From the sequence record OR539220.1: a stretch of DNA of 64,000 nucleotides, one strand, 5' to 3'. The stretch is from Escherichia phage vB-Eco-KMB40. The position numbers and the translations under genes were made by a program. The notes below the pieces were generated by a model. It searched no databases. It was given only the letters and a program-made list of their open reading frames with translations, and was not told where the DNA came from. This document shows positions 4,323-62,720 of this stretch, piece after piece (the stretch's first letter is position 1; each line of letters begins with the position of its first letter).

Positions 4323-4340
4323 AAAGGCCCGAAGGCCTTT
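4323..4340 (-). terminator. intrinsic terminator hairpin (UUCG loop)
   Basis: AAAGGCC-cgaa-GGCCTTT perfect 7-bp stem, U-rich flank; right after stop of 4340..4600 ORF. Confidence 0.6.
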
Positions 4341-4600
4341 TATTTAAAACGGATAGTCGAATCCTTAAAGAACAGCCCAGAACATACTGTTCCTTCTACT
4401 TTCTGCCCAGTAGGTCCAATAGCACGAAATCCAGTATGCTGGAAATCATTTTCAGAGCAACCGAACCAATTATATCCAGTGATTTCAATATTAGTAAAAC
4501 CACTTGAAGACAAAACTTTAGTTGCATTATCAGCATCAGTACATCCTACTAAAGACACTACTAATACTAATGCTGCAATAGAACGATTAATATATTTCAT
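4340..4600 (-). CDS. predicted lipoprotein (86 aa)
   Basis: signal peptide with lipobox LVGC; in 39-cef interval. Confidence 0.5.
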   Translation of the reverse strand: MKYINRSIAALVLVVSLVGCTDADNATKVLSSSGFTNIEITGYNWFGCSENDFQHTGFRAIGPTGQKVEGTVCSGLFFKDSTIRFK

Positions 4601-58571: not shown

Positions 58572-59033
58572 TCATTGAGTTTTAATTACTGCTTTAGAAG
58601 CCTTTCCTGGTAAACGACGACTGTTGATAATTGCCATCCTACATTGAAGTGACGGGTCTTTGAACTTCTCATTAGGTTTACAAACTGTAAATCCAAGCCA
58701 AAGATTTCCATCTGTAATTTCTAAACGTCCAGGACGATATTCAACTCCATCAATAAAATCCTCATCAATGTCAGGACGCGGAGGCATACTCAGGAATTCA
58801 TTAACTTCTAAAACATGGTCTTTTATTTTATGGAATAATTCAAAAACATATGTCTCATCAATCTCCCGTTGAATTGCACGATCAAGAAGATGTTGAGAAT
58901 ATTTTAGATGAAACGATGAGACCCCTGCTGCTTTTGATGCCTCACGAATCTCATTGTTAATTTGACGAAACTCCGACTCAAAGTGACGACGAAGCTTATT
59001 TCGACGGATAAAAACTTCTGTATTGATAGTCAT
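58572..59033 (-). CDS. regB: RegB endoribonuclease (153 aa)
   Basis: 153 aa as T4 RegB; promoter and SD upstream. Confidence 0.8.
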   Translation of the reverse strand: MTINTEVFIRRNKLRRHFESEFRQINNEIREASKAAGVSSFHLKYSQHLLDRAIQREIDETYVFELFHKIKDHVLEVNEFLSMPPRPDIDEDFIDGVEYRPGRLEITDGNLWLGFTVCKPNEKFKDPSLQCRMAIINSRRLPGKASKAVIKTQ

Positions 59034-59092: not shown

Positions 59093-59371
59093 TTATTCTT
59101 TAAATCTAATCAATTTATTCATAGACTTTGAAACTTCTGCACGAACCTCATGTAAGTTTTTAAGCTGTTCAAGACGCTGCGTATAGTAAGCAATTTCATC
59201 TTCTTCGAGACAGTCCTGTGAATCTTCTTTAAGATAACGTGCATAGTCCTGGAAAGCTTTACGGACTACTTCCTGGAAGTCATCAAGACTTTGAATTTTC
59301 TTAGGAGCGACAGATACACGACGAGGTGCAGTATAATACTCATAACCAAACCCTGCGCTTAATTGAGCCAT
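59093..59371 (-). CDS. vs.3-position protein (92 aa)
   Basis: ATG at 59371 overlaps upstream stop (TAATG); track ORF starts further upstream. Confidence 0.4.
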
Positions 59372-59637
59372 TAGTATTTTTCCTCTGGTTGGAACACTGC
59401 GCGACAAGCCCACATACTGGCTTCTTTGAGTTTCGTTTTAGCAATAGTTAACTGATCGAGGCTTTCGGCGTAATTCTTCGCGAGTTCATCATCTTCACAG
59501 CTATCAAATGCTTCCCAAAATTCATCGTATAAAGCATCAAAGATAAGTCCTAAACGAACTTCAGCGTCTTTAATAGCATTTACTTTACCGATTTTTTCGT
59601 CGGTATGTGGCTTATAACCTTTAATATCTTCAATCAT
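59371..59637 (-). CDS. acb2: vs.4-position protein, possible Acb2 cyclic-oligonucleotide sponge (88 aa)
   Basis: ATG at 59637 with SD GAGGAAG; second ORF upstream of regB; identification from recollection of T4 Vs.4. Confidence 0.4.
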
Positions 59638-59851
59638 ATTTGACTTCCTCACCAGTACATAAATCGTATTCAACTAAACGAATAGGTTCATGAATGCCAT
59701 ATCCCTGAACAGAAATTTCTGTAGTAGGATAAATTCCATTAATATCACCCATGTTCCATGCTTCGTTAAATTGCTGTTCGCCTGAATTACTAAACCATTC
59801 GGCGAAAGCATTTAGCACATCTTCAGAACCTTCAATAATTATCTTTGCCAT
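59630..59851 (-). CDS. hypothetical small protein (73 aa)
   Basis: ORF in vs cluster. Confidence 0.4.
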   Translation of the reverse strand: MAKIIIEGSEDVLNAFAEWFSNSGEQQFNEAWNMGDINGIYPTTEISVQGYGIHEPIRLVEYDLCTGEEVKYD

Positions 59852-60213
59852 TACAAACTCTCGGTAAAGGTACGAGCGATAACGTCGCGCTGCTGTTCCG
59901 GAGTCAGAGAGTTAAAGCGAACTGCATAACCGGATACACGGATGGTCAGCTGCGGATATTTTTCCGGATGCTTAACTGCATCTTCCAGAGTTTCACGACG
60001 CAGAACGTTAACGTTCAGGTGTTGACCACCTTCAATTTTAACTGTAGGTTGTGGCTCAATTTCAATTTCACGGGCATGCAAACCATAGAAAATTTCTGGG
60101 TCTACAAAAGAGTCCTCTTTAAAGGTTTTAGAGACAATAATTCGTGCTTGAATACCATCTTCAAAATAAATAGTACCTTTATGTGTGCCTTCAAGAATTT
60201 GATATGCTTTCAT
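59851..60213 (-). CDS. autonomous glycyl-radical cofactor, GrcA/YfiD-like (120 aa)
   Basis: glycyl radical signature RVSGYAVRF and GQHLNVNVL...[15 protein letters not shown]. Confidence 0.7.
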
Positions 60214-60220
60214 ATAAACC

Positions 60221-60547
60221 TCAATTAGAAAATAAATTTATCCAAGATTGTTCTTTAATTAAAAATGGCTCAGAATCATATGCCATTAAACTTTGGGTGA
60301 TTAGTCCTTTAAAAGGTCCATCAATAAATTCCATGGTAAAATATGGAATTTTATTCATTAACTGTGCGTTAGGAGCAGTGCACAAAACTCTGCATCCTTT
60401 GAATACGCCTTTTTGTAATTTGTATTGCTTGGGATAAAATTCGCTTAAAATGTTGTTATTTGCCAAAATTTCAAAATGATTTACCAATTTATTTTTAATA
60501 GTTTTTGGCGAAAAATAGAGATATTCGAAAAGCTGTGTGTCTGTCAT
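60221..60547 (-). CDS. hypothetical protein (108 aa)
   Basis: track ORF trimmed to ATG at 60547 (TAATG overlap with upstream stop). Confidence 0.4.
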
Positions 60548-61137
60548 TATTGCATTCCGATTACGAAAAACTGTGGACGAGTAATACCACCAATGCAACA
60601 TTTACTATTACAGCAGTAGTGTACAGTGTCAATATGGACGCTATAAATCTTATCCATATCAGGAGATTTGACAGGCTCATCAATTATATACAAAATTCGC
60701 GAAAGCGATAAACCTCTGAACTTGCTTCCTTTATTACCAATAAAACTGCGTACAGAATCAGTAAATAAACGAAAACGTATATCATCATTAGAATAACGCG
60801 AAAATTCCTTTTTAATGTTATTTGCAGAAATTTTAGCGTAAGCTGAAGTATTAGAAAGAACAATAACTGTTCCGCCATCATACAGCCAATTAGCAGCAAA
60901 GTTAGTCACAGCAATTGATTTACCGGATTGACGTCCACCATCTATACGAAGTGTGCAGTACTGTTTGAGCACATCTTCCATTGGTGGAAGATAATCATTC
61001 TTACAAAGTTCTTCTACTCTAGCATCAGAATGGTGTGTAAAAGCATTCATCAGGGATAGATAAGGTCCGGTTAAAAATGTTCTCATGTTATTTCTCTTAA
61101 GGTTTTTGGGCCATTCCGTGGCGCATGAATTGTCCAT
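60547..61137 (-). CDS. P-loop protein (196 aa; alternative ATG at 61086)
   Basis: Walker A-like DGGRQSGKS. Confidence 0.4.
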   Translation of the reverse strand: MDNSCATEWPKNLKRNNMRTFLTGPYLSLMNAFTHHSDARVEELCKNDYLPPMEDVLKQYCTLRIDGGRQSGKSIAVTNFAANWLYDGGTVIVLSNTSAYAKISANNIKKEFSRYSNDDIRFRLFTDSVRSFIGNKGSKFRGLSLSRILYIIDEPVKSPDMDKIYSVHIDTVHYCCNSKCCIGGITRPQFFVIGMQ

Positions 61138-61230
61138 TTCTGTATTTACCCATTACCGCACTCAGGCTCGACCTTATTACAGGTTGGCGGGAATCCCTCA
61201 TAGAATCATGAGGTCCAGGCTGTTCCCATA

Positions 61231-61704
61231 TTATTTGAACGATTTAACGTACTGAATAGAACCTTTACTATTTACAAAGGCAATTTTACCATTTTTATTA
61301 TACATGGTAGCAGTACGTTGATAACCATAAGTTTGTTTACCAGATTGATAACCAACTAATGCGAAATTATCTTCGCCCATTTTATTCTGTTTAGCGCGAA
61401 TGCGTTCATGACCATGTGCCATAAGAACCTTAGCATCACCGGTTGCAATGGATCGACGAGTTTTTTCATCTTCAACTGTATTAACAAAGTCGTCAAATGA
61501 ATCAAATTTAGCATGTGATTTATTATACAGTTTTCCATCTACTGCATAATTATATCCCTGTACATCCATCTCAACTTCTGTACCATCATCCAATACAGCA
61601 GTGATTTTTTGACCTTTTTTAAATTTCAAAAGATCAGTAAAAGATTCAGCAATAATTTGAGAATTAATAGCTGCTTCAGTGATAAATTCTTGATATGTTT
61701 TCAT
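61231..61704 (-). CDS. internal-protein-like protein with capsid targeting sequence (157 aa)
   Basis: N-terminus MKTYQEFITEA matches T4 IP targeting sequence MKTYQEFIAEA; adjacent to denV. Confidence 0.6.
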   Translation of the reverse strand: MKTYQEFITEAAINSQIIAESFTDLLKFKKGQKITAVLDDGTEVEMDVQGYNYAVDGKLYNKSHAKFDSFDDFVNTVEDEKTRRSIATGDAKVLMAHGHERIRAKQNKMGEDNFALVGYQSGKQTYGYQRTATMYNKNGKIAFVNSKGSIQYVKSFK

Positions 61705-61713
61705 ATGTTTCCT

Positions 61714-62130
61714 TTAAATGTAAATATTTTTACCGTAATACTTATACCAATGTGGTTTCATTAAAATTTTTTCATCAAGTCGTTGTTGACTCAATTTAAT
61801 AGCTGATTTGCATGGATTATAATCATTTTTCCATTCTACTGGAATATCGCTGATGTCAGGAACTTCAGTATCTTTTATACTGAACCCTCGTTTTAAGCAT
61901 TCCGTTATAATGTCTAATTGACGCTTTCGCAAAAATTCTAACTTATCGTAAAAGAACGTAACATGACCAGAACCTAAAATAAACTCGGAAGATATTTTAA
62001 AATCTTTAACGCGCTTACCGTTTGCCACATGCTTACGAACTATACCAAAAACACGTGGCAATTCACGATATTCTGCAATTAAATGCTGATCAGTAAGTTC
62101 AGATACTAAAGTCAAATTAATACGAGTCAT
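61714..62130 (-). CDS. denV: endonuclease V, pyrimidine-dimer DNA glycosylase (138 aa)
   Basis: [12 protein letters not shown]...[10 protein letters not shown]...WYKYYGK; 138 aa as T4 DenV, visibly diverged. Confidence 0.85.
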
Positions 62131-62155
62131 TTTATCCCTCCAAGTAACTGTGAAT

Positions 62156-62185
62156 ATACTATCACAATTCTAGGAGAAAGTAAAC
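62156..62185 (-). promoter_or_regulatory. early sigma70-type promoter for denV
   Basis: GTTTAC at 62180-62185, TAGTAT at 62156-62161, SD GGAGGG. Confidence 0.5.
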
Positions 62186-62189
62186 AACT

Positions 62190-62720
<531 letters not shown>

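Follow-up and report, generated by a model that had tools for sequence, protein, structure and literature searches.

The T4 protein Vs.4 is described in the literature as Acb2 (PMC10097602, PMC10449767, PMC10312549, PMC12657218), as an earlier note on the DNA studied here had stated. T4 Vs.4 binds 3',3'-cGAMP with a Kd of ~30 nM and forms a hexamer that carries three cGAMP molecules; a vs.4 knockout of T4 showed a sensitivity to CBASS that was increased ~50-fold (PMC10097602). In this protein Y8 and F82 pi-stack on cGAMP, hydrogen bonds and salt bridges are contributed by Y8, H11, K23 and R79, and S74 adds to the ligand contacts. T12 serves as a helix cap, and the hexamer interface is formed by L29, A66, A73 and A77 together with F33 (PMC10097602). 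Mutations of Vs.4 residues abolished or weakened cGAMP binding, CapV inhibition or oligomerisation, and function was lost upon mutation of Y8, F82, L29, A66, A73, A77, T12 and S74 (PMC10097602). The ligands of T4 Acb2 include 2',3'-cGAMP as well as 3',3'-cUU, 3',3'-cUA, 3',3'-cUG and 3',3'-cAA, and do not include cA3 or cAAG, which the variant D61R still failed to bind (PMC10312549). T4 Acb2 also binds 2',3'-c-di-AMP with a Kd of ~62 nM and triggers Panoptes (OptSE), a system in which the sequestration of decoy dinucleotides leads to the release of a toxic membrane effector. The variants F82C and Y8A lose this triggering (PMC12657218).

Three other described proteins are relevant for comparison. 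Acb2 of Pseudomonas phage PaMx33 (PDB entries 8H2J, 8H2X and 8IXZ) binds cA3 and cAAG in a second pocket, to which R67, T74 and a kink of the helix at E64 belong (PMC10312549); this pocket sets it apart from the protein described below. Tad1 (Thoeris anti-defence 1) shares the helical-hairpin domain PF24729 and likewise sequesters an immune signal without cleaving it; it binds gcADPR in addition to cyclic di- and trinucleotides (PMC10680739). Acb1, the product of T4 gene 57B, targets CBASS second messengers as well, and T4 possesses both Acb1 and Acb2 (PMC10312549). Acb1, unlike Vs.4, acts enzymatically and degrades cyclic nucleotides; in sequence and fold the two proteins are unrelated.

The DNA analysed here, called the window, is a stretch of 64,000 nucleotides from Escherichia phage vB-Eco-KMB40 (OR539220.1). 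It belongs to a Tequatrovirus, and the nearest phage is Escherichia phage VEc74. On one strand of the window the genes tk.4 (macro domain), vs, vs.1 (SLT domain), regB, vs.3, vs.4, vs.5, vs.6, vs.7, a vs.8-like gene and denV follow each other, in agreement with the order and strand seen in T4. The product of vs.6 is a GrcA-like glycyl-radical cofactor according to a match to Pfam Gly_radical. A comparison of the window ORFs and their Pfam matches with the T4 annotation revealed that the order regB, vs.3, vs.4, vs.5 and vs.6 (GrcA) on one strand is the order found in T4. Thus, the synteny with T4 is kept and the gene is located at the vs.4 position, where the earlier note had placed it. Counted upstream from regB, which was identified by its match to Pfam REGB_T4 (Table 1), vs.4 comes second.

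Table 1. Location of vs.4 and of adjacent features in the window, with the evidence for each
Feature	Coordinates	Strand	Product length	Position or role	Evidence
vs.4/acb2 CDS	59371..59637	(-)	88 aa + TAA stop		ORF and translation, 7UQ2, PF24729, PHROG 717, Foldseek
Ribosome-binding region of vs.4	59638..59650	(-)		within the 3' end of vs.5	direct sequence reading
vs.5	59630..59851	(-)	73 aa	upstream neighbour	ORF list, junctions, end-to-end PHROG 1986 match
vs.3	59093..59371	(-)	92 aa	downstream neighbour	PHROG 2037, E=1.3e-40; T4 layout alike
regB endoribonuclease	58572..59033	(-)		synteny anchor	Pfam REGB_T4, E=8.1e-69

The coding sequence of vs.4 was read from the minus strand. Its ATG occupies positions 59637-59635 and its TAA stop codon positions 59373-59371, and the protein starts with MIEDIKGY and ends with FQPEEKY. 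The 88-aa ORF is present in the sequence exactly as first reported. The GAGG core of the Shine-Dalgarno sequence is found at 59650-59647 and is separated from the ATG by a spacer of 9 nt (upstream sequence GGTGAGGAAGTCAAATATG). A DNA alignment showed that this ribosome-binding region is the same in T4 and VEc74. With such a core and spacer the site is a fair one; the earlier description of it as a strong Shine-Dalgarno sequence was slightly generous. A longer frame of 100 aa, which begins with TTG at 59673, appeared in the ORF list. It was dropped and ATG 59637 was preferred, since the T4 annotation, the crystallised protein and all aligned homologues begin with MIEDIKGY and since the GAGG serves ATG 59637. 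The other frames and the opposite strand of 59371-59637 contained only ORFs of 30-41 aa, none of which was supported. The sequence GGAG was absent within ~40 nt of the vs.4 start. Consequently, nothing points to a cleavage by RegB at the ribosome-binding site of vs.4.

Both ends of vs.4 overlap with a neighbouring gene. The ATG lies inside the final codons of vs.5, whose TGA stop codon (59632-59630) is located 8 nt inside vs.4, and the sequence of this 8-nt overlap is ATGATTGA. The stop codon of vs.4 and the ATG of vs.3 (59371) have one base in common and form the TAATG junction that had been noticed before. The genes from vs.8 down to vs.3 form a dense, co-directional series upstream of regB. 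From vs.6 to vs.3 they abut or overlap, with junctions of -1, -8 and -1 nt, which is consistent with translational coupling within one polycistronic unit.

The only promoter-like site with a TG extension lies downstream of vs.4, at 59089-59061 on the minus strand, where 59 nt separate vs.3 from regB. This site, TTTACT-17-TATAAT, is no more than a consensus match. It directly precedes the Shine-Dalgarno sequence of regB (AGGAG) and by its position would serve regB. A generic scan of the region for sigma-70 promoters yielded 13 sites compared to 14.6 sites expected in shuffled sequence, i.e., no excess. Strict regular expressions for MotA-box middle promoters, T4 early promoters (GTTTAC...TATAAT) and late promoters (TATAAATA) gave no match on the minus strand of 59600-62400, and a consensus scan for terminator-like sites detected none on the minus strand between 62300 and 58500. 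The timing of vs.4 expression we infer from the gene order.

The gene upstream of vs.4 differs from its T4 counterpart. T4 vs.5 is truncated by a deletion of 1 nt and ends 36 nt before vs.4, whereas vs.5 of the window is intact and reaches 8 nt into vs.4. The intact form of 73 aa is also present in VEc74, and in RB33 and ZN18 a CDS of 222 nt likewise shares 8 nt with vs.4. The T4 reference (NC_000866; vs.5 at 4338-4558 of the T4 locus used for the comparison) lacks one C at nucleotide 50 of vs.5, where the window reads TTCGCCGAA and T4 reads TTCG-CGAG. Therefore, the annotated 58-aa Vs.5 of T4 represents a frameshifted form. The long form of Vs.5 is fitted by PHROG 1986 over its entire length.

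Further differences from T4 were observed near denV. A gene of 157 aa with a DUF7412 domain (61231-61704, minus strand; Pfam E=5.7e-96) separates denV from the vs.8-like gene (60547-61137). No such gene occupies that site in the T4 reference, which contains only vs.8 with 219 aa there, while the layout of VEc74 is the one seen in the window. The lysozyme gene e (62190-62684) comes directly after denV (61714-62130), and this phage lacks the internal-protein genes ipII and ipIII, which T4 carries between denV and e. The window ends shortly past e, and going by the T4 gene order the T4 Acb1 locus presumably lies beyond its right end.

The 759-bp stretch from vs.5 to vs.3 exhibited a nucleotide identity of 99.1% to VEc74 and of at least 95% to 344 phage records. 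The Vs.4 proteins of the window and of VEc74 are identical. Altogether, an identical Vs.4 protein was found in 59 phage records and a homologue in 1242, and nearly all database records name the product of vs.4 'hypothetical protein'. One of the records with a Vs.4 protein that is 100% identical to that of the window is PV654520.1 (142 kb), which is entitled 'Pseudomonas phage vB_PSGBLB0006' and gives P. aeruginosa as the host. This host label is unexpected for a Tequatrovirus-type gene, and the record could be mislabelled or could stem from a mixed sample.

The family of the protein was determined by sequence searches. Using phmmer against all PDB chains, the best match was 7UQ2_A, designated 'Vs.4', with E=4.4e-53 and 83 identities among 88 residues (94.3%) over residues 1-88. 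The title of this entry is "Vs.4 from T4 phage in complex with cGAMP". The next matches belonged to PaMx33 Acb2 (8IXZ/8H2J, 'p26') with E~0.09, and here Y8 and K23 were aligned to Y11 and K26. Pfam family PF24729 (Acb2/Tad1 hairpin) was matched over profile positions 1-58 of 58 with 71 bits, the gathering cut-off being 27 (E=9.4e-20). A match to PHROG 717 was obtained with E=5.6e-32; this PHROG was used by Jenson et al. to gather 198 Vs.4 homologues (PMC10097602). The NCBIfam scan of the Vs.4 protein matched no model. The similarity to T4 Vs.4 and the Acb2 family, for which the gene had been put forward as a candidate, is borne out by these results. They support the assignment of the window gene as the Tequatrovirus orthologue of T4 vs.4, alias Acb2. 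The similarity to T4 Vs.4, the mostly synonymous divergence described below and the homologues in other phage records confirm that vs.4 is a genuine gene and not a chance ORF.

The window protein and T4 Vs.4/Acb2 (NP_049728; 7UQ2) have the length of 88 aa in common, and the start context of the gene, the TAATG junction with vs.3 and the slot between vs.5 and vs.3 are shared as well. They differ by five substitutions, four of which are located around the hairpin turn. PaMx33 Acb2 is likewise a two-helix hairpin (TM ~0.71) of the PF24729 family; besides the tyrosine and the lysine mentioned above, an arginine equivalent to R79 is kept. However, its identity is only ~24%, and it carries an alanine where the window protein has F82. 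The pair of Arg at R67 and Thr at T74 that marks the PaMx33/JBD67-type trinucleotide pocket was not found in the window protein, which like T4 Acb2 has D61 and T68 at the equivalent positions. No structure of Tad1 was among the significant sequence or fold matches in the PDB. Judged by its matches, the window protein is an Acb2 and not a Tad1.

In order to compare the two Vs.4 proteins at the level of single residues, the coding sequences of the window and T4 were aligned. They differ at 20 of 267 nt, resulting in 12 synonymous and 5 non-synonymous codon differences. By this count vs.4 is under purifying selection. The substitutions relative to T4 are E13D, L44F, N46S, C50D and F52L. The residues in contact with cGAMP (Y8, H11, K23, S74, R79 and F82) and those of the hexamer interface (L29, F33, A66, A73 and A77) are all as in T4, and the same holds for T12 at the helix cap and for L60, D61 and T68. 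Going by the alignment, every residue of T4 Vs.4 that was tested functionally is kept in the window protein. The substitutions L44F, N46S, C50D and F52L cluster around the hairpin turn at the end opposite from the dinucleotide pocket. By C50D a cysteine is lost and a negative charge is gained at the hairpin tip; D50 also occurs in RB33. At position 13 the aspartate of the window protein is the residue of the family majority in the alignment of 12 homologues, and E13 of T4 is the exception. The substitutions are unlikely to alter the function.

The structure of the Vs.4 monomer was predicted with AF2 from the single sequence. This model had a mean pLDDT of 87.2 and showed two helices, at 11-45 and 50-81, which a turn at 46-49 joins into a hairpin. 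Vs.4 is an acidic 10-kDa protein, and in this model it exhibits the antiparallel helical-hairpin protomer of about 90 aa. A Foldseek search of the PDB yielded the chains of 7UQ2 as the best matches (E~1e-9, TM 0.73-0.74), followed by PaMx33 Acb2 (8H2X/8H2J). The confidence was lower at the ends of the chain: residues 1-6, the ligand-contacting N terminus, had a pLDDT below 50 and residues 81-88 averaged 68. As the model is monomeric and its termini are of low pLDDT, the geometry of the pocket rests wholly on the homology to 7UQ2.

By analogy to T4, we are highly confident that vs.4 encodes a functional hexameric Acb2 sponge which blocks CBASS. Six Vs.4 hairpins would interlock to form a hexamer with three pockets, each of them located at a dimer interface and made up by the N and C termini of two chains. 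One cyclic dinucleotide, which may be 3',3'-cGAMP, another CBASS dinucleotide or 2',3'-c-di-AMP, would fit into each pocket. There, base stacking would fall to Y8 and F82, and contacts with the sugar-phosphate ring to H11, K23, S74 and R79. In this way Vs.4 would sequester the messenger of the host CD-NTase without degrading it, so that CBASS effectors such as CapV would need a higher signal threshold. With the effector left unsignalled, the phage could complete its cycle. From the properties of the T4 protein we infer that the window protein forms a hexamer, binds cGAMP in the nanomolar range and inhibits CBASS. It probably shares with T4 Acb2 the inability to bind cA3, as D61 and T68 are unchanged. 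It should trigger the decoy-nucleotide guards of the Panoptes (OptSE) type.

The variation within the family was followed in an alignment of 12 homologues from seven genera, namely the six Straboviridae genera Tequatrovirus, Mosigvirus, Dhakavirus, Jiaodavirus, Slopekvirus and Tegunavirus, and Phapecoctavirus. Temperate phage HK639 and PaMx33 Acb2 are counted among the 12. Residues K6, G7, Y8, N20, K23, M75, R79 and P84 were invariant in all 12 homologues. Residues 1-36 and 62-88 were nearly invariant, whereas residues 37-61 were variable and contained indels. A similar picture emerged from the codons that differ from T4: codons 44-52 contained 4 non-synonymous and 2 synonymous differences, compared to 1 and 10, respectively, in the rest of vs.4. 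This contrast between the tip and the rest of the gene was drawn post hoc from one sequence pair and is suggestive. The hairpin tip (37-61) could be subject to relaxed constraint or to diversifying selection. A proposal to which we attach a small probability is that diversifying selection is exerted by an undescribed host factor, for instance a guard or a protease, which recognises the surface of the Acb2 hexamer directly. Such a factor would differ from Panoptes, which senses the depletion of nucleotides. Alternatively, the tip may simply be unconstrained.

The clustering of four of the five substitutions within nine codons, together with the ratio of non-synonymous to synonymous differences given above, might also be taken as a sign that the Acb2 fold is retained and that its ligand range has shifted, through the changes at 44-52 or through E13D beside H11 and T12. 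The protein might then have gained the binding of cyclic trinucleotides or of 3'cADPR (Thoeris), or might have lost affinity to 2',3'-c-di-AMP and thereby escape Panoptes. The ligand range does differ among Acb2 homologues: cA3 is a ligand of the PaMx33 and JBD67 proteins but not of the T4 protein (PMC10312549), and some Acb2 clades take 3'cADPR in place of cGAMP (PMC12393519). However, the substitutions surround the predicted turn 46-49 and are distant from both known pockets; the one for dinucleotides is formed by residues 8-23 and 74-82 (PMC10097602) and lies at the other end of the hairpin. Moreover, the trinucleotide-pocket positions D61 and T68 are as in T4, and the T4 protein failed to gain cA3 binding even with D61R (PMC10312549). 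The Thoeris-binding Acb2_43 depends on additional beta strands at its termini (PMC12393519) that the window protein lacks, and with D13 the window protein follows the family majority while T4 is the outlier. A shifted ligand range is regarded as very unlikely.

That vs.4 chiefly does something other than sequestering nucleotides, or is unexpressed, and that its similarity to Acb2 is inconsequential would agree with the label 'hypothetical protein' in nearly all records and with the lack of an NCBIfam model, but is hardly credible in view of the intact frame with its Shine-Dalgarno sequence and coupling overlaps on both sides, the mostly synonymous divergence, the ligand-contact residues that are invariant across genera, and the changed outcomes of CBASS and Panoptes upon loss of vs.4 in T4 (PMC10097602, PMC12657218).

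A cyclic-dinucleotide sponge of the T4 type thus remains the preferred assignment for vs.4. The finding correctly recognises, in a phage closely related to T4, an anti-defence gene that had been characterised before. The structure, biochemistry and genetics of T4 Vs.4/Acb2 have been known since 2023 and the exact protein is already present in dozens of Tequatrovirus genomes, so that little is added in this respect. The value lies in the annotation, i.e., in the name acb2 in place of 'hypothetical protein'. This name predicts that the phage would resist CBASS systems that use cGAMP or other cyclic dinucleotides and that it would be vulnerable to guards of the Panoptes type. These predictions bear on the choice of phages for therapy and on the prediction of host range.
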